Source of the DNA: an uncultured Verrucomicrobiota bacterium
GTDB taxonomy: Bacteria; Verrucomicrobiota; Kiritimatiellia; CAIVKH01
Direction: 5' to 3'
NCBI GenBank assembly: GCA_937872895.1
Contig: CALMUP010000005.1
Span: 1 to 64,000 of the forward strand
DNA length: 64,000 bases
The position numbers and the translations under genes were made by a program. Below the pieces are notes generated by a model. The model had not been told where the DNA came from. It did no database searches and saw only the letters and a program-made list of their open reading frames with translations. Below are positions 16,959-27,456 of the stretch, piece by piece (position 1 is the first letter of the stretch; each line of letters begins with the position of its first letter).

Positions 16959-17513
16959 ATGACCACACGCCGGACATGCGGAATGGTTCTATGGGCGGTG
17001 GCCGCCGCGGCACTGGTCGCATGGATGGTTCGTCCGGGCGAACCGGAGACACCTGCGCCGATGGTCCTCTCCCATCCGACACCCGACACCCCGCCGTCCC
17101 CGACCACCTCCGCGCCCATCGAACCACCACCGCCCGCTCCTGAACCGGTCATCGCGGACTTCGCCGCCGACCTCGAGCGGGCCGTGCTCGATGCCGAAAA
17201 CCCGGAGGCGCACCGGCAGGCGGTCGAGCAGGTCCTGTTCTTCTACCGCCGCGCCTTCGGGGAAAATCCGGTCGGTCAGAACGAGGACATCACCGCCGCC
17301 CTGCTCGGGGCCAACCCGCAACGCCTCGCCTTCCTGCCGCACGGCAGCGCCGCCATCGCCAACGGTCAACTTGTCGACCCGTGGGGCACGCCCTACTGGT
17401 TCCACTCGCTCAGCGGCCAGCAGATGGAAATCCGCAGCGCCGGCCCCGACCGTGAGCTCTTCACCCCCGACGATGTCGGCGAAGGCGGGGAGCCGGAGAA
17501 ACCGCGCGAGTAG
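16959..17513 (+). CDS. Membrane-anchored Pro-rich protein with pseudopilin (GspG)-like C-terminal motif
   Basis: N-terminal TM, PT-rich linker, C-terminal '..NGQLVDPWGTPYWFHSLSGQQMEIRSAGPDRELFTPDD' resembling the GspG/type IV pilin globular C-terminus, but no prepilin GFTLIE motif. 11 bp after the DUF1501 gene. Confidence 0.5.
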   Translation: MTTRRTCGMVLWAVAAAALVAWMVRPGEPETPAPMVLSHPTPDTPPSPTTSAPIEPPPPAPEPVIADFAADLERAVLDAENPEAHRQAVEQVLFFYRRAFGENPVGQNEDITAALLGANPQRLAFLPHGSAAIANGQLVDPWGTPYWFHSLSGQQMEIRSAGPDRELFTPDDVGEGGEPEKPRE

Positions 17514-17532
17514 TGCGGAAAAGAAATGATTC

Positions 17533-17568
17533 AACCACCCGCTTCGCGGGTGGTTGATTTCTTCTCCC
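17533..17568 (+). terminator. Rho-independent terminator
   Basis: Perfect hairpin CAACCACCCGC-TTCG-GCGGGTGGTTG followed by ATTTCTTCTCC. Confidence 0.75.
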
Positions 17569-17583
17569 AATTCCTGGAAACAC

Positions 17584-17610
17584 AAACCGGCCGGCTTTCC
17601 AAGGTCTGGA
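17584..17610. repeat. Partial (27 nt) copy of the groEL terminator/att sequence (copy A)
   Basis: aaaccggccggctttccaaggtctgga is identical to the starts of the 160-bp repeats at 18391 and 25763, then diverges; corresponds to half of the terminator hairpin (break in the loop). Confidence 0.8.
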
Positions 17611-17670
17611 CCGCCTCCTTGACACACGTACTATGGTCACACATACTATGTGGATACCTGGAGCTTTCTC

Positions 17671-17898
17671 ATGAAAAACGTGACCCTTGCCATGGACGAG
17701 GATTTGCTGGAGGCCGGACGGGCCTATGCCCGGGCCCACAACACCTCGCTGAACAACCTGATCCGGGAGTCCTTGCGCCGGACAGTGATCAAGGAAGCAC
17801 GCGCGACGTGGGCCGGCGAGTTCCTTGCCGTGGCCGACAAGGTAAAGGGCGACTCGCGCGGCAAGACCTGGAAACGGGAGGAGCTGTACCGTGGCTAA
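17671..17898 (+). CDS. Type II antitoxin (VapB-like)
   Basis: Small ORF (MKNVTLAMDEDLLEAGRAYARAHNTSLNNLIRESLRR) typical of antitoxins; overlaps the downstream PIN gene by 8 nt. ATG 17671 preferred over GTG 17650. Confidence 0.6.
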   Translation: MKNVTLAMDEDLLEAGRAYARAHNTSLNNLIRESLRRTVIKEARATWAGEFLAVADKVKGDSRGKTWKREELYRG

Positions 17899-18310
17899 GC
17901 GCGGCAAGGTGTTCATCGACACCAACCTGTTCATCTACGCGTTGGACCGGCGTGTTCCCGCCAAACGCAAGGCGGCCGCGAAGGCGTTGCGCGCGATCGA
18001 GGCGGAGGGCAACGGGGTGGTTTCCACCCAGGTGTTCCAGGAGGCGTACGTCGCGGGCACGACCAAGCTCGGTATCGCACCGCAGGACATGAAGCAGGCC
18101 ATCGTCTCCCTGCGCACGCTCGAAGTGGTGCAGGTGGATGTCGACCTGATCCAGGCCGCCATCGACTGCAGCATCCTGCAGCGGCTCTCCTTCTGGGATT
18201 CCCTGATCATCGTCGCCGCCGAAAAAGCCCGCTGCACCGAACTGTGGACCGAAGACCTCAACCACGGCCAACGCATCCAAGGCATCCGGATCCACAACCC
18301 GTTCATGTAG
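17891..18310 (+). CDS. vapC: PIN-domain toxin (VapC-like)
   Basis: PIN-domain residues (FIDTNLFIYALD ... TEDL..); overlaps the upstream antitoxin; GTG start. Confidence 0.8.
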   Translation: MAKRGKVFIDTNLFIYALDRRVPAKRKAAAKALRAIEAEGNGVVSTQVFQEAYVAGTTKLGIAPQDMKQAIVSLRTLEVVQVDVDLIQAAIDCSILQRLSFWDSLIIVAAEKARCTELWTEDLNHGQRIQGIRIHNPFM

Positions 18311-18380
18311 TTCACGGATCCGAGCGGCGGTGACGCGATGACCCGGTGACACTAGGGCGTCACGAAGTCATCGCGCCACC

Positions 18381-18428
18381 TCGATACAAAAAACCGGCCG
18401 GCTTTCCAAGGTCTGGAAAACCGGCCGG
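18381..18428 (-). terminator. Duplicated copy of the groEL intrinsic terminator
   Basis: On the minus strand: CCGGCCGGtTTTCCAgaccTTGGAAAgCCGGCCGG followed by TTTTTTT. Confidence 0.7.
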
Positions 18429-18550
18429 TGAATCAGAACGCGTTCGCGTCAGATCTTAGTACATGTCGCCCATGCCGCCGCCCGGTGGCATGGCGGGAGC
18501 TTCCTTCTTCTCGGGAATCTCGGTGATCATGCACTCGGTGGTCAGGAGCA
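18391..18550. repeat. 160-bp direct repeat, left copy (attL-like); terminator plus 3' end of groEL
   Basis: 100% identical by eye to 25763-25922. Confidence 0.9.
18456..18550 (-). pseudogene. Displaced groEL 3' fragment (last ~31 codons, ...[13 protein letters not shown])
   Basis: Identical to the real groEL 3' end at 25828-25922; lacks the rest of the gene. Confidence 0.85.
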
Positions 18551-18579
18551 AGACGAAACTCGACCCAACAAATTGAGCA

Positions 18580-21500
18580 TCACATTTTGATCGTTTTTTG
18601 TAACCAGTCGCCCTGAAGGATTAACTTACCACCGGACAGAAGCAGATCTATTTGGCTGTCAATAAGCTCCCTAAGCGCAGGCCCAGTAACGCTGAAGCCG
18701 AGAAAACGAGCTACGGCACTGGGTAACTCCTCACGGCGAGCACCATGCCCTGCATCTACAAACACCATAATTGCCTCCTGCACTTCAGGTGGTGGCAGGT
18801 ACTCGGGCTTCCTCAGTGTCGAGGAAGAAGTGCTCACCCGACTTCTGGGCTTAACCGGTGCACCCGGGATACTGAGGAACCCATTACTACGAACGCATCG
18901 CTTTTGGGTTAACAGTGTATGCACGGAATTTCCTACGGCGCTTTGAATTCGCGCTCCAGCCCGACTCAGACCCCACAATCCGCGAATGCGCACGACAACC
19001 TCATCTTCATGAATGGGTCCTTCAATGCTCACAATCCGGTGAACGATATCTCCGAGCTCTCGGGGGGACAGAAGATGGATTTCTTTTTTCGGCACCGCGA
19101 ACTTGGCTTCCTCATAGATAACTGCCGTCAATTCGGATGATCGTTCGTCTTTCGAAATGGCCAACACCTCACGCGAAATACCTGCGTCATCGCTAGCCGA
19201 TACTCTGACCGATACGATGGGCGCAGCGGCTACCTCTTCGCTTTGTGCAATATTTTTAGCTTTTTGAATTGCTGACTGGATTTTCCGGAGCTCATCAGTT
19301 CTACGCTGGAACCAATCCGTGCTCCATACCCGATGAATGATCCATCCATGATTCTCCAGGACCGCTTGCCGAAGCCGATCGCGCTCTCTCGCTGAACGCG
19401 ATGAATGGTATGATGCCCCATCGCATTCGATCCCCAGTATGTATCGGCCATGCAACTCCTGATCAACGACGGCAAGATCGATAAAAAATCCGGCAATACC
19501 GACCTGACTATGAACCTCGTAACCCAACGACTCTACAGCGCGGCGAATGGACTCTTCGAGGGGCGATTGCTCCAGCTTGCCCGAAGGTGCCGCCAACGAC
19601 ATACGACCCGTTCTTGCGAAGGAAAGAAACGCCTTTAATGCTGCCACACCCCGACCAGGTGCGCGCTCAAGATCAATTTGATCCTCGGTTATGCTTGAAA
19701 AGACTTCACATCGCGTTTTGGCGCGCGAGATCAGGACGTTTAAACGTCTTTCCCCACCCTCGGCATTGAGCGCGCCAAACGTCATTGCCATGTACCCGTT
19801 TTCATCAGGGCCATATCCTACCGACAAAAAAATAACATCCCGCTCATCACCCTGAACGTTTTCCAGATTCTTGACAAAAAACGGTTCAGACTCGTGACCA
19901 TAGAAGAAACCTTCGAGGTCTGGGTGCTCGCGACGCAAGAGTTCCAGTTCATCCAGGATGGCCTGACGCTGTTTGATGGAGAATGCGGCAACGCCTAAGC
20001 TCAATTGCGGCGTTTTTCGCGCATGCTCAATTACCGCCTTGGCAACGACCCTCGCCTCAACGCGATTAACGGCAGCACGACCACGCTCAAAGACTCCATC
20101 AGGAACATGGTTGAATTTTAGCCCAAGACCAGCAGCTGCGGAATGTGGACTGGGGACAATAAACAGGCGGTCCTCATAGAATTCATGGTTCGATACGGCA
20201 ATCAGCGTATGATGCCGACTTCGGTAATGCCAGCGAAGCATTTTGGAGGGGATCCCGCGCGCGAGGCAAAGACCGAGAATACTCTCCATGTCGCCAGCTT
20301 GTACAATATCCTGAGGGACCTCCTCGTCCTCTTCTTCAGATCCGTTCGTCATTCGCTGGAAAAACCGGGTTGGCGGAAGCTGTTTGCTATCACCCACGAC
20401 AACAATCTGTTTGCTTCTCGCAACTGCGCCCAGCGCATCAACGGGTTGAACCTGACTCGCCTCGTCAATAACCAGTAAGTCAAACTCGACAGCACCCGCC
20501 TCAAGAAATTGCGCGACGGATAGAGGACTCATCATAAACACGGGTTTAATGGCCTGAATGACTGAACCGCAGTCTTTCAGCAAACGCCTAACCGGGCGAT
20601 GCCCGCGCTGACGCTCCATTTCACCGCGAAGGATTCCCGAGGGCCCCACCCCAACGAACGCTGGCATCTTGCTGAAATGAGCATGCAAGACCCGGTACTT
20701 GGCAAGCGTCAGTCGCGCTTTATCCATTTCCTTGAAGTCGTTTACATGTGTGTTGTGCAAGGCGCCATCAAACCGCGCAATGTTCGGCTTATCCTTGACG
20801 ATTCGCCGAAAGATTTCGGCATAATAGGCATGGTCGAAAACCGCACCGGCAACTTTTGGCGTAAGCCGGCCGGAGTCGAGCTCCGTAACGATGGGTGAAA
20901 GCCCGTTTTCAAGCGCGTCTCGGCGTAGCAAGTAGTATGAATTCCATTCAGAAAGCGAATCAAGCCTGATGAGCCACGTAGCGCCACGATCGCGCAACAT
21001 ACTCAGGGGCACATCTTCCTGCTGAATAACATTAAACGACTCCTGCCAATCAAGCCTTAACTCGGCCTCCACAACCGATCGAGCCGCGCAAAATGCTGCA
21101 GCCTTGGCGCGTACAGAGTCAACTGTGGATCGCAACGCTTCAGGACGCTCCTGGACTACCGCAAACACCTCGCGGAAATCAGCGTCCAGTCCGACCGCCT
21201 GCTGTTCATCCACCCACTGAATGATTGCATGAAGCTTTTCACAATCCGAGTCCGCTCCCTGCCAGTTCGACCCGAACACGGCACGTCCATATTCCTCGTT
21301 CGCGGTGATTTCCTTGAGGATGCGCTGCCCCTCGATGATTTGATCAACTCGCCCGAGAAGATTCCTGGGCAGCTTTGTGGATGGATTTTTCAGCGCACCA
21401 CGCAAGGTGGCCACCGAACGTCGATAACTCCCATTCAGGAATCGGAAAAATGAAGTGCCGTGAGATGCAACCGGACCCCGAACATCAGAGAAGTCTTTTT

Positions 21501-23361
21501 GCCAAGCATCATCCACAACAAGCGGTTCCACATTGCGAAGTTCTTTATAGCGCTGAAGGCTCGCCACCAACTTTATGATTTTGTCGCCGTCGGTATCCCA
21601 TGCCGGGTTCTTGATTGCGCTTCGATCAAGGTATTCCGGGGCTTTCGCCATAAACTCCGCAATTACACAGTATGACTCCACTTCCGTCGTTGAATCGGGA
21701 ACATCCTGCTTAATCATGGAAGCTAGTCGGCCGGCCTCAGCCAGAAGGGTTTGCAGGTGCTCGTTCATCCTCGCGATTACGTCGCGAATGCCGGTTAGAT
21801 CTATCTGCAGCACGGTTTCTCGACGGACGCCACGCCATAGGTGCTGGCACGGGGGGCCGATATGCTCTATTCGACTGACGACCTGCTGGAGCAACGATCG
21901 GCGCAGAGCGGCCACATCGGCGTTCCATTCGGGAGCATCGGGAAGCGACAATCGTGAATATTCAGAAGGAACATCCGGGAGTGCGGACAGGGCTCCCATC
22001 GCGCGAAAGGCCGATACATTGGTGTTTCCGTACGGTTCGTGCAGAGTGTTGCTATGCATCGACAACACACTACGCAGGCGCTCGAGTTTAGGTAGAATTG
22101 ACTCCAGTTTCGCCATGTCGGGACGGGTTAACTGCCAGGTCCGCCCGATTTCGTTAATCACCGCTCGCTTGCTGGTCTTGTTGCTGTGCAGCTCAAGGCA
22201 AAGATCGCCAAGCCCTTCTCGCTCCATACGTCGCTTAACGACCTCAAGTGCGGCCAGTTTTTCGGCTACAAAAAGCACTTTCTTTCCATCCATCACCGCC
22301 GTCGTGATGATATTGGTAATCGACTGACTCTTCCCTGTCCCGGGCGGCCCCTGAATAACCAGCAGTTGATTTTTGCGAACGGTCTCGATGGCAATGGCTT
22401 GCGAACTGTCGGCATCGACGACGTGGTCTAATCGGTCCACAGAAATCAGTTCATCAAGATTGGCATTGTCGGGAATCGGATCGCCCTTTACGGCAAATCC
22501 ATCCTGCAAAAGCCCTGTAATCAGTGGGTGACCATGAATCTTCTTTTCACCCGGCCAGCTCTCTGGATTCAGGTCACGGTACATCAGGAATTTCGCGAAG
22601 GAGAAAAAGCCGAGCGTAATGGCGTCCGGAAGGACTTCCCATCGTTTGGCCGACTCAACCACCCGCGCCACCGATGCGAAATACTCGGCAGGCACAAGTG
22701 ACTCCTCGTCTGGAAAGGATGGCAGGGTAATTCCGAATTCGGCCAACAGTTTTTCGGAAAGCGAGTAATTCTGGAGAATTTCCTCTTCCCTCCAGCGCAA
22801 GATCAAGCGATCCGACACCGTCCGACGACTTAACTCGACCGGGACCAGAATCAAAGGAGCAAAGCGCTCTATATCCGAAGATTCACTCTCGAACCACTTC
22901 AGTTGCCCCAGGGCCAGGTACAAGACATTAACGCCTTGTTCTTCGATCATCGCCTCTGAGTCACGGTACAAGTCGATCAATCGGCGCTGTAACCCCTCGG
23001 GCGAGAGTGCGGTCTGCAGCCGTAGATCAATATGCCGCTTGGCCGTGCCATTTGATTCAATCTCATCCTCGTTCGGAATCGGCACACCAATTTCGTCATC
23101 GGCACCCTCCTCGCCCTCTTTATCCTGACCATCCTGCTCTTTCTGCTTGCCGGGGAGAAAACTCAGCGCCTTTTTCTCGGTCACGAGCAGGCGATACACC
23201 TCGGAGGCCTGTTCGTCATAAACATTGACAAATCGGCCTGTTTTTAGCGGGATCGACAGCAACCTGTTGCGGCAGGACAAGTCGAGCAATAACCGGCGCG
23301 CCTGATTAAGGATTTCCAGCGATTTAGATCCCATAGCTGGCAAACTTAATGCAGCGTACAC
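18580..23361 (-). CDS. DUF4011 / SF1 helicase (AAA_11 + AAA_12) / Vsr-DUF559-like endonuclease / DUF3320 protein (Hhe-like architecture)
   Basis: N-terminal DUF4011 signature (..[15 protein letters not shown]..); Walker A '[11 protein letters not shown]'; helicase C-terminal '[16 protein letters not shown]'; Vsr/DUF559-like nuclease core '..FFIDLAVVD....[43 protein letters not shown]'; DUF3320-like C-terminus. Start may be ATG at 23334 rather than GTG at 23361. Confidence 0.85.
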
Positions 23362-23608
23362 ACCCCGCGCAACACTAGTCTTCTGGAGCGCAAGTGGCCA
23401 ACCTATAGATAAGACATCTCACACCGCGTGCGTTTGCAGTACAGGCAAGAAAACATAGAATAAAATGGATCCATGAAGGAGGAATCCTAAAAGTCTGACC
23501 TGCCTAGAAGTCGGTAGATCCTCACGTCTCGCAGAACTCATTTCGACGTTTTCACCCGCGCTTCAATACTCTAGTTATTGAAACCTTGTGGCCAGTCCCT
23601 GCGCTGCC

Positions 23609-24265
23609 CTAACTTCGACATATCACCAAATCTACGGGCACAACTCCTTCTATCGTTTTGATGAAATTGTCAACACGAGCATCGATGATAACGATGTCTT
23701 CTTTAATCCAGCCGAAATAGGATTTCTGTTGTTTCGTGAATCCAACATTCTGCATGAAGTCATCAATTTCGTTGTCGCTTGGGTGAGGAGATTTCTGGTC
23801 CATAGCAGTCCACCAAGGCTGTGAAATTACGAAACTCGGCTGATGACCATTTGCGGTAATCAAAAGCGATTTTCGCATTAGCAATCCTTCCAGACGTATA
23901 TCGGAGCGGAAAATCTCGTTCATCAACTGGATTCGCTGAAGATAAAATAATGGCGTCGCAGCCTTTTGAACGCCTTTCGGTTCTGGTGTTACGCCGAAAC
24001 ATCCGGCATAGGTTATTTTGAGAGCACGATTATCTGAAGTGCGATGAAACACCTCATGTTCGGCGGTAGCGATACCGTATTTTTTAAGTCCCTCGCAACA
24101 TCCCAAGGAGAGTACCGCGTTTTCAGCGGTTGCCCATTTGATTATACAATCGCTTTGTCGGTCAATTTCTTGCGAATCGCAATTGATGCCGACATTTGTA
24201 TATCCACTTGTTCGGAGGTAGGTGGCGGCTGATGCCGCAAGGCATCCATTTGTTGAATTAACCAT
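23609..24265 (-). CDS. Hypothetical protein (island cargo, 218 aa)
   Basis: Coherent ORF in the low-GC island; no recognisable domain. An in-frame stop lies 3 codons upstream of its ATG, so it cannot be a simple frameshift continuation of the upstream ORF; overlaps that ORF by 124 nt. Confidence 0.45.
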   Translation of the reverse strand: MVNSTNGCLAASAATYLRTSGYTNVGINCDSQEIDRQSDCIIKWATAENAVLSLGCCEGLKKYGIATAEHEVFHRTSDNRALKITYAGCFGVTPEPKGVQKAATPLFYLQRIQLMNEIFRSDIRLEGLLMRKSLLITANGHQPSFVISQPWWTAMDQKSPHPSDNEIDDFMQNVGFTKQQKSYFGWIKEDIVIIDARVDNFIKTIEGVVPVDLVICRS

Positions 24266-24897
24266 GATGGAGCACTAGGTTTTTGAGCGGGATCAAGATG
24301 AGTAACCTCCGCCTTGTTCCAAAATTCTTCAAACCGGGCCTCCAAGTCTCGTCCCATTTGGGGCTCATTGAAAAAAACCTCGGCTTTGATCGTGTCCGCC
24401 GGGCTATCCGGTGCCAATTCACCGTGCAGCTTCTCTAGACGGACTATTTTGGAGTCGCACACAATGAAATGTTGCAGCTTTTCCTTTGCCTTTAGCCGTG
24501 CAAGGGTGAACGTGCCTGCGAATTCATGCGCAAGTGCCACTAACCATTCAGGATAATCCGGCGCAATTACAATCATGCGGGCTGTACCGCTTGCTTTTTG
24601 TACGCGTTGCAATGCATCCGTCAGATGCCTCAACAAAGCAGCGTAAAAGCCACCGCAACCGCATCCAGTAACAATATTTATGCTTTTGTGCGTGTGAAAA
24701 AGCATCGTCTCTGTGTATTCCAGAGCGTCAGGATAACAATCGTTTTCCAACTTAATGGTCTCACCCTTCTCGAGGACAGCACCGACAATATCTTTCAAGC
24801 AGTGAGACGGATTGGCAGCTTTCGCCTTATAATTTGAAATCGCCTGCGCGATTGTCATGCTTCCCGCTTCATTTCTTTGTTGCTGGCTCATCATCAA
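24142..24897 (-). CDS. Hypothetical protein (island cargo, 251 aa)
   Basis: Coherent ORF in the low-GC island; Gly/Cys-rich segment IVTGCGCGGFYAALL; no recognisable domain. Confidence 0.5.
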   Translation of the reverse strand: MMMSQQQRNEAGSMTIAQAISNYKAKAANPSHCLKDIVGAVLEKGETIKLENDCYPDALEYTETMLFHTHKSINIVTGCGCGGFYAALLRHLTDALQRVQKASGTARMIVIAPDYPEWLVALAHEFAGTFTLARLKAKEKLQHFIVCDSKIVRLEKLHGELAPDSPADTIKAEVFFNEPQMGRDLEARFEEFWNKAEVTHLDPAQKPSAPSWLIQQMDALRHQPPPTSEQVDIQMSASIAIRKKLTDKAIV

Positions 24898-25751
24898 CCC
24901 TTTTCACTCAAAAAAGAGACGCGCTTGGTATCAAAAATGCTCAAAAAGGCAGTACAAAAACGACTATGCTTCAGCGCAAGAATGGGGTAAGCACAAAATC
25001 TCGTGTACAACCCTATGGAATGCATTCGTGTACCAGTAATTGGCCATGGTATTTCCCATCGATACACTTATAGACTAAACACATTTACATACTAATCGAG
25101 CATAGCGCAGAGTAAAGGGAAAATGGGCTACCATTGCTCAAAATTACTCTGACGAGTGGCTTGGATTCTTTACCTCGCTTCACAAAGTTGACAACAAAGC
25201 CCCAAAAAGTAATACATAATTCACACGTATTCAAATACTTGCAACAAGAATGCCCCCTCGACAACTCAAGGCTACCGCGTTGAGTATCCGCCTACTGGAG
25301 CAAGAGCACCCACGCAACATGATAGCCTAGTTCTGACAGTGTTTACTTCGCTGCGGCAAGTATGGGCAAATCCTTCACGTTCGCCTTGATGACCAGCCGC
25401 ATCAAGCAGGCGGCTAAAAGATTCTTCACCTTACCGGACGTCCACTATTGGGCCTTGACCGACGACATCGCGACGATCCTCTCTTGGCTTTCCCAATGGA
25501 AGCACCCGCCCCCGCCCAATCAAGAAAGAAGATCCATTCAACGCAAAATGGCATGGCGTTTCAATTACCCCGAAACGGGATTGTCTCACCTGTAACATTC
25601 TGACTTGCAATCAAATGCGACTTTCCGGCATTCGTTGTGACTGTATCGACATAAACACGCTCACCAAACAAACTTCAGGGTTCGCGCCCACTATGAATCC
25701 AAAGCTGGATCGTTGCATCTCTCGACTATTTCCAATAAACCATCTTCCAAG

Positions 25752-25800
25752 TCTTGTAAAACAAACCGGCCGGCTTTCCAAGGTCTGGAAAACCGGCCGG
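25752..25800 (-). terminator. groEL rho-independent terminator
   Basis: Minus strand: CCGGCCGGtTTTCCAgaccTTGGAAAgCCGGCCGG followed by TTTGTTTT; 28 nt after the groEL stop. Confidence 0.8.
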
Positions 25801-25827
25801 TGAATCAGAACGCGTTCGCGTCAGATC

Positions 25828-27456
<1,629 letters not shown>

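Follow-up and report, generated by a model that had tools for sequence, protein, structure and literature searches.

A deeply conserved dual-coding overlap in a putatively mobile cassette of a predicted minimal kinase and its candidate partner

The stretch of DNA analyzed here (the window) comprises 64,000 nucleotides from an uncultured Verrucomicrobiota bacterium (GTDB lineage Bacteria; Verrucomicrobiota; Kiritimatiellia; CAIVKH01) and corresponds to positions 1 to 64,000 of the forward strand of contig CALMUP010000005.1 in GenBank assembly GCA_937872895.1. Two genes on its minus strand, called A and B below, share 124 nt. Gene A (24142-24897) appears in the six-frame list of open reading frames (ORFs) as 251 residues from TTG 24897; its probable start is the in-frame ATG that follows at 24894 or 24891, and a 249-residue version, 100% identical, is public as protein HMO04922.1 of a Kiritimatiellia metagenome-assembled genome (MAG). 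Gene B (23609-24265) encodes 218 residues from ATG 24265 and is predicted to be a stand-alone minimal protein kinase. In the dual-coding segment (24142-24265), the last 40 sense codons and the stop of A coincide with B codons 1-41. The third base of the Ser codon within the "...APSW..." of A is the first base of the B ATG, the reading frame of B is -1 (= +2) relative to A, and an in-frame TAG lies 3 codons upstream of this ATG. The two ORFs, their overlap, and this stop had been recorded in the initial annotation, which was made from the letters alone, and all are present in both the ORF list and the sequence.

Three parts can be distinguished, all on the minus strand. The A-body (24298-24858, residues ∼14-200 of A) combines an N-terminal helical region with a domain predicted to have the phospholipase D (PLD)-superfamily fold. 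The T module (24145-24303) is formed by the final ∼53 residues of A, KPSAPSWLIQQMDALRHQPPPTSEQVDIQMSASIAIRKKLTDKAIV. The Kinase-PolyVal domain of B (23621-24157) covers residues 37-215. The initial annotation had allowed that neither ORF might be conserved anywhere, which is ruled out by 20 homologs of A (E values down to 1e-129) and 25 of B (down to 1e-106). It had also argued that the pair is not simply one gene broken by a frameshift. A split single gene can indeed be rejected, as A and B have different folds and each has full-length homologs.

Evidence for coding in both frames comes from loci around B homologs, of which 79 were fetched from species-representative genomes and metagenomes; 38 non-redundant loci that lack indels in the overlap were used for the selection tests. 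Mean pairwise divergence at B codon positions 1, 2, and 3 is 0.39, 0.24, and 0.34 over codons 2-40 and 0.34, 0.24, and 0.63 over codons 45-215. The suppression is thus at the third position of B, with values of 0.336 in the overlap (bootstrap 95% interval 0.308-0.367) versus 0.631 in the downstream control (0.610-0.643). In 5-codon bins, third-position divergence stays at 0.20-0.38 through codons 1-30 and has recovered to 0.5-0.7 around the end of T (codons 36-45). All 38 loci keep the T frame open over at least 37 codons, compared with a null of 19.4 ± 2.9 and a maximum of 27 in 500 synonymous resamplings of B. The T stop falls exactly at B codon 40 in 31 of these loci. Of the control windows, 20.5% have this alternative frame open.

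Substitution patterns agree with this picture. A simplified test modeled on that of Wei & Zhang (PMC4316641), which classes each substitution by what it does in either frame, was applied to 17 independent nearest-neighbor pairs and yields an omega of 0.31 for T and 0.40 for B within the overlap. In the control region, the values are 0.27 for B and 0.85 for the alternative frame. The codons for Ala at B positions 13-15 are GCC in 29-32 of the 38 loci, whereas GCC makes up 36% of Ala codons elsewhere, a lock that keeps the Pro-Pro-Pro of T. Conserved RNA structure was considered as the source of the constraint and rejected, since RNAalifold on 37 overlaps returned -2.1 kcal/mol and 0 compensatory pairs. 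Taken together, these data establish genuine dual coding, in which both frames of the overlap encode a selected protein. Among the options raised in the initial annotation, a genuine long overlap is therefore favored, with both frames under purifying selection and the T frame and B conserved in all 38 loci, as its call for conservation of the pair and the overlap in other genomes had envisaged. Programmed recoding fares poorly, with no conserved slippery site or downstream structure in the 37 overlaps.

Several features bear on where B starts. B is conserved from residue ∼2 and belongs to the modeled kinase fold from residue ∼10, its Pfam domain starts at residue 37, the helix at residues 10-19 is modeled with a predicted local distance difference test (pLDDT) score of ∼90, and W44 and A45, which lie past the stop of T, are at least 90% conserved. 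From codon 2 to codon 53 of B, the window lacks any ATG, GTG, or TTG. The codon aligned with B Met1 in the 38 loci is ATG in 19, TTG in 7, GTG in 3, and CTG in 9, and ATG in half of the loci compares with a background of only 19% A at third positions. Conservation and the structural model thus point to 24265 as the start of B in the window. A later start was rejected as a general solution, both for the missing start codons and because the Met51 of some homologs is not conserved. The later non-ATG start that the initial annotation had suggested would have to be the TTG at codon 54, which would remove conserved residues.

Public annotation has adopted that very start. The corresponding proteins of Kiritimatiellia MAGs (HMO04921.1 / HMP33770.1) begin at TTG 24106 and have 165 residues, which avoids the overlap and drops 53 conserved residues, and the full-length 218-residue B is absent from a collection of 15 billion proteins. 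Gene callers behave similarly elsewhere: B is shortened to 169 residues in L001 (loci are denoted here by L and a number), and the upstream gene is skipped in L081. In loci where the aligned codon is not ATG, a GTG or ATG in the B frame usually lies ∼37 codons farther upstream. Loci with CTG as the aligned codon make up a "long-B" subfamily (L014, L016/L082, L021, L022, L035, L036, L038, L047, and L063), in which the upstream in-frame start is accompanied by a conserved (D)IDK motif. In this subfamily, the entire T gene (53-61 residues) is therefore nested inside the kinase ORF and does not just overlap it.

The initial annotation had found no recognizable domain in either ORF and called both unannotatable, a view that no longer holds. 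B is predicted from sequence and model to have a protein kinase fold of the Ser/Thr/Tyr type and to belong to the Kinase-PolyVal family, and A is predicted to have a PLD-superfamily fold. The match of B to Pfam PF18762 (Kinase-PolyVal) scores 27.2 bits with a cutoff of 27.0 and aligns residues 37-215 with profile positions 4-156 of 160; the same domain is a precomputed match in 17 of 25 B homologs. The AlphaFold model has a pLDDT of 85.1 and a predicted template modeling score of 0.84. The N-lobe and the catalytic core of a kinase are present in it, and the whole C-terminal subdomain (C-lobe) is gone. Among 26 sequences of the B family, K83 (in ALK), E69, and Q149 are invariant, and D195 and N200 (in DARxDN) and D212 (in IDLV) are conserved in at least 90%. 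Assigned by motif position and the secondary structure of the model, without superposition, the catalytic residues K83, D195/N200, and D212 appear to be intact. E69 and Q149 fit two hallmarks of the family, a Glu before strand 2 and a Gln in the last N-lobe strand (PMC5512222). Conservation extends over the full length of the 25 homologs, residues 1-41 included.

Kinase-PolyVal domains normally occur inside large multidomain (polyvalent) proteins, with stand-alone versions noted in Bacteroidetes, and the family has been viewed as a conflict effector (Iyer, Burroughs, Anantharaman & Aravind 2017, PMC5512222). We found no literature on PF18762 beyond its listing in one survey, and the main text of PMC5512222 does not contain the word "overlapping". 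Several traits tie B to this family: it sits at the Pfam threshold, it has lost the C-lobe and kept the K/D/N/D residues together with E69 and Q149, its best viral structural match (in BFVD) is a 1229-residue polyvalent protein, and it comes from a bacterium of the Planctomycetes-Verrucomicrobia-Chlamydiae (PVC) group, the lineage in which the family was described. Other traits set it apart. In the window, B stands alone as a protein of 218 residues and is not embedded in a giant polyvalent protein encoded by a phage or conjugative element. The kinase also stands alone at nearly all of the related loci, and at most loci it has 218-271 residues. It also carries a subfamily-specific N-terminal extension of ∼36 residues, and a conserved partner ORF overprints the 5′ end of its gene.

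An odd placement of the kinase cassette is inside an essential ligase gene. On metagenome contig Ga0172372_10002433 (L061:1522-4701, plus strand), a 1060-residue NAD-dependent DNA ligase with adenylation, OB, HhH, and BRCT domains has an in-frame insertion of ∼270 residues within its C4 zinc finger, only the second half of which is recognized. This insertion encodes a kinase domain of the B family whose catalytic motifs are intact, and the alternative frame contains a degenerate T-like peptide.

The T module is the constant element of these loci. Wherever the N-terminus of B is intact, the frame of the A tail is open over the first ∼40 codons of B and encodes T, whose family consensus is VIPAPxWLxxRMExLRxMPPPT[LS]xEVxxxxKASAEIRKKLxxKQPA. 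T is conserved in 38/38 loci whatever body precedes it. The upstream part can be the PLD-like A-body, one of at least three other unrelated bodies of 70-150 residues that have no Pfam match, or only ∼20 residues. Among B-homolog loci, the A-body is limited to close relatives of the window, namely the Aquilonibacter MAG type, the L003 type, and L081, and most loci have T and the kinase without any A-body. A T-profile search also retrieved 36 free-standing T proteins, mostly of 53-61 residues, unnamed, and without Pfam domains. T is modeled as two helices with pLDDT 58-72; the C-terminal one is a conserved amphipathic basic helix that is well separated from the PPP motif. PPP is invariably followed by Thr or Ser (34 and 4 of the 38 loci, respectively), and this residue is a candidate phosphorylation site. 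These patterns suggest that T is a constant, dedicated partner of the kinase.

The A-body is less closely bound to the kinase. In the AlphaFold model of A (pLDDT 84.6), it is predicted to adopt a PLD-superfamily fold, with the nucleases Nuc, NucT, and Zucchini as closest folds and equally good matches to the non-catalytic PLD-like domains of TrmB/TrmBL2 and FAM83 (DUF1669). The likeness to this superfamily lies in the PLD-type α/β fold. It differs in that HxKx4D is replaced in A by H143-x4-D148-x4-R153-x-E155-x2-H158, with no HKD lysine and a sequence identity of 12-15%. The window protein reads H143-F-I145-V-C-D148, so that Ile occupies the lysine position, as it does in the family consensus, and the Asp lies at H+5, not H+7. 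H143, D148, R153, E155, H158, and N52 are strictly conserved in 39 diverse A-body members, and this retention of polar residues suggests some activity or the binding of a ligand. A Pfam scan gave no PLD-family match for A. A Gly/Cys cluster that the initial annotation had singled out, IVTGCGCGGFYAALL, is present and forms the first strand-loop of the PLD fold; it is not a conserved Cys motif, as only T77, G78, and F84 are conserved and the cysteines vary among homologs.

A profile of the A-body retrieves 529 cluster representatives (E ≤ 1e-3), mostly of 190-215 residues and ending before T. In 4/4 readable contexts of these T-less relatives (L080:160-1451, L086:521-1655, L087:6001-7138, and L089:6001-7181), a protein of 161-182 residues with 2-3 hydrophobic segments is encoded 0-32 nt downstream. 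A kinase in this downstream position was considered and rejected, the partner being a small, three-helix membrane protein. Three of the four partners are clearly homologous to one another, and the fourth (L087) is weakly so (E 0.03-0.07). The membrane partner has no match in Pfam or PADLOC, and searches of Pfam, NCBIfam, PADLOC, and PHROGs with A, T, and this partner gave none. The T-less A-body and the membrane protein are apparently an undescribed, widespread two-gene cassette. Gene order suggests that the A-body is a reusable upstream component, normally paired with a membrane protein, and that the combination with T and the kinase was acquired in the lineage of the window.

At the DNA level, other A/B loci resemble the window only within 23610-24860. 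This limit indicates a mobile unit independent of the neighboring helicase, and the region appears to be a self-contained, horizontally mobile two-gene cassette of ∼1.25 kb. In other genomes it occupies five unrelated contexts. In L081 it lies, with A-T and B intact, between the terminase and portal genes of a Mu-like prophage, and in L084 it adjoins Mu-type transposase genes. Further copies are found beside IS1595, between a ubiquitin-like (E2/JAB/ThiF) system and AbiE, and in an island rich in PIN, ribbon-helix-helix (RHH), and PemK genes. The defense-island setting proposed in the initial annotation is thus borne out, with the cassette occurring in defense, toxin-antitoxin, and prophage islands of other genomes. 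Another copy (L082:7108-11035) is inside a DUF58 - VWA - BatA operon, where the long-B start abuts the DUF58 stop. This arrangement may have arisen by insertion, or the association may be functional. In L081, a MoxR-type AAA gene lies ∼6.5 kb from the cassette.

In the window, the A/B pair is part of a low-GC island that spans ∼18.4 to 25.8 kb. The guanine-plus-cytosine (GC) content is 47-48% in the pair, 52-55% in the adjacent helicase gene, and ∼64% in the flanks. One edge of the island is a strong groEL terminator (25801-25765, 17-bp stem). The opposite edge is a VapBC-like pair (17650-18310) on the plus strand, consisting of an RHH antitoxin-like gene (17650-17898; DUF6364 at threshold, FitA/CopG-like) and an overlapping PIN-domain gene (17891-18310). 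The ∼870 bp between the A start and the terminator (24898-25765; ∼47-50% GC) contain no convincing ORF, have no Rfam match, do not resemble the flanking DNA of other copies of the cassette, and may be a remnant of the insertion. Rfam gave no match over positions 17000-27000 of the window, and the sole tRNA found by a tRNA scan, at 45.7 kb, offers no clue to an integration site.

The helicase gene (18580-23361, minus strand) encodes 1593 residues with DUF4011, superfamily 1 helicase, and MTES_1575-nuclease parts. The initial annotation had called it Hhe-like, which is imprecise: Hhe matches only the C-terminal half, and the full-length match is to the PADLOC candidate PDC-S37 (1812 bits), presumably a single-gene candidate judging by PADLOC naming. 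The score for the NCBIfam model "anti-phage protein ProA" is just below the cutoff (1470 versus 1500), and a search of the literature on ProA as an anti-phage gene found nothing specific.

We consider it somewhat better than an even bet (∼55%) that the cassette is a dual-coded module in which T binds the kinase as a regulatory subunit and the kinase is a conflict effector. Both the upstream gene and the overprinted downstream gene would be translated, with the DNA of T encoding the N-terminal ∼40 residues of the kinase one base out of register. T would bind B as an antitoxin-like inhibitor or as a docking adaptor; in the A-T protein of the window, the PLD-fold domain, probably a sensor or pseudo-enzyme, would thereby be anchored to the kinase. 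As the effector, B would phosphorylate host or phage proteins in the manner of a toxin-antitoxin, abortive infection, or prophage-moron system. The overlap would lock T and B together genetically and couple their translation. A conserved C-terminal segment with swappable N-termini, its upstream position, the mobility of the unit, and the conflict contexts fit the logic of a modular antitoxin or adaptor. For the A-body on the kinase there is an analogy in FAM83, whose PLD-like domain anchors CK1. Minimal kinases without a C-lobe often depend on partner proteins, as OspG does on E2~Ub, and this dependence makes an activator or adaptor role for T as plausible as an inhibitor role.

Several points weigh against this reading. 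The PF18762 score of the window B is barely at threshold, and some of the "bodies" upstream of T in GC-rich loci may be mere open frames. T has no recognizable DNA-binding or known antitoxin fold and no Pfam, PHROG, or PDB match. There is no consistent Shine-Dalgarno motif upstream of the T or B starts. No PADLOC (2023) model matches any component of the cassette, and neither A nor B has a match in 50,697 sequenced phages (INPHARED) or in IMG/VR, so that the link to phages rests on two prophage-like contexts. Finally, that T binds the kinase, which way regulation runs, what the substrates are, and what role the cassette plays are all inferred, and the translation of T and the activity and toxicity of B are predictions.

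Other explanations have been weighed against the T-kinase module. That T acts in cis, as an upstream or overlapping regulatory ORF whose nascent PPP stall peptide or whose translation controls initiation of B, is unlikely. Polyproline is a known EF-P-dependent stalling motif, a near-invariant M-P-P-P-T lies 12-15 codons past the B start, and the lack of a Shine-Dalgarno sequence at this start makes coupling to translation of the T frame plausible. However, conservation spans the whole ∼50 residues of T, including the C-terminal amphipathic basic helix, and T persists at the C-terminal end of unrelated folded domains, as expected of an interaction module and not of a leader peptide. A cis-acting PPP stall is possible as an additional layer. 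Programmed -1 ribosomal frameshifting, whereby ribosomes on A-T would slip into the B frame to make a polyvalent-like PLD-kinase fusion as in IS3 OrfAB or dnaX, would account for B lying in the -1 frame, for whatever precedes B always being in the T frame and running into B, for CTG at the aligned B start in 9/38 loci, and for the usual occurrence of Kinase-PolyVal in multidomain proteins (PMC5512222), such as the best BFVD match. The upstream frame 0, downstream -1 frame, and multi-codon overlap are indeed the layout of IS3-type orfA/orfB or dnaX. Unlike those systems, the 37 overlaps show neither a conserved X XXY YYZ heptamer nor a stimulatory structure, and B keeps its own start, with ATG, GTG, or TTG at the first overlap codon in 29/38 loci and an upstream in-frame start in the CTG loci. 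In addition, protein-level conservation reaches the last residues of T and begins at residue 2 of B. We regard frameshifting as very unlikely. The thought that the overlap is an annotation illusion, with one frame translated over 24142-24265 and the other conserved as a by-product of DNA, codon, or initiation constraints, is scarcely tenable. In its favor, two frames that share DNA necessarily co-vary, alternative frames stay open more often in GC-rich genomes, and the NCBI pipeline sidestepped the overlap by shortening B. Nevertheless, synonymous resampling predicts ∼51% open T frames where 100% are observed with a fixed stop position, the alternative frame relaxes to an omega of 0.85 downstream, the third-position suppression in B lasts ∼35 codons and ends where T ends, and B is conserved beyond the stop of T, with no other start and a Pfam domain from residue 37; the overlap also showed no RNA structure.

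Two further alternatives concern the roles of the proteins. A itself might be the effector, a phosphodiesterase or nuclease with a variant active site, and the kinase its regulator. The six strictly conserved polar residues of the A-body and the nucleases among its nearest folds speak for this. On the other hand, the HxK lysine is absent, the Asp is displaced to H+5, the non-catalytic domains of TrmB/TrmBL2 and FAM83 match equally well, and the kinase occurs with T in most loci without an A-body, which implies that it works without one. We regard an effector role for A as rather improbable. A and B as accessory subunits of the DUF4011 helicase-nuclease, to which the initial annotation had tied them, are a most improbable alternative. 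The genes share a strand and one low-GC island, with a gap of 247 bp, and the helicase matches PDC-S37 over its full length and comes close to ProA. However, among the window and the 79 loci, tblastn finds the helicase only in the window, and it is also absent from six further loci; the homology of the cassette ends at 23610 and 24860, and the GC content of A/B differs from that of the helicase.

The T-kinase module can also be compared with type II toxin-antitoxin systems with kinase toxins, such as HipBA. The gene layout is alike: T, of 53-61 residues, lies upstream of a co-directional, larger enzyme in a mobile two-gene unit that occurs in toxin-antitoxin and defense islands and in prophages. 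Moreover, T is found at the C-terminus of the upstream protein with a swappable N-terminal domain, as in modular antitoxins. The differences are that T and B share 40 codons (or T is nested in B) and not a few bases, that T has no recognizable DNA-binding domain, nor do the bodies fused to it have a Pfam DNA-binding match, and that the B kinase is unrelated to HipA.

The position of the T stop at B codon 40 and the start of the Pfam domain at residue ∼37 suggest that T once lay directly upstream of the kinase core. A plausible origin is that the B start then migrated upstream into T. T is slightly more constrained than B in the overlap, as the omega values show, and this is consistent with T being ancestral. 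Long same-strand overlapping genes are common in viruses and have rarely been established in bacteria (PMC5810103, PMC2268670). The present case resembles other overprinted genes in that one DNA stretch encodes two proteins in different frames with measurable purifying selection in both. It differs in that dozens of divergent lineages retain the overlap (with B identity as low as ∼45%) and in that the two genes it links probably form a functional pair. Most of the better-known bacterial examples, by contrast, are antisense ORFs with a lineage-restricted distribution.

Neither the kinase family nor the PLD fold is new, and what is unusual is the deeply conserved dual-coding architecture of a toxin-antitoxin-like cassette. 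As a tentative proposal, which we think has less than even odds of being right, T and the kinase would represent an undescribed class of kinase-based conflict module, with an obligate regulator of ∼55 residues (antitoxin or adaptor) that arose through, or was fixed by, overprinting of the 5′ end of the kinase gene, exchangeable N-terminal sensor domains such as the A-body that attach to the kinase by way of T, and an ancient, functional overlap that governs stoichiometry and coupling. Within such a class, the T regulator could possibly be a phospho-acceptor at the invariant PPP-T/S. For the orphan Kinase-PolyVal family, T is the first candidate for a dedicated partner. Two uncharacterized mobile cassettes, T with the kinase and the PLD-fold protein with its membrane protein, are exposed in defense, toxin-antitoxin, and prophage contexts. 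Bacteria offer few well-supported long same-strand overlaps in which both frames are selected, and such overlaps are suppressed by annotation pipelines. The deep conservation of the A-T/B overlap makes it a clean system in which to ask why two putatively interacting genes share codons.

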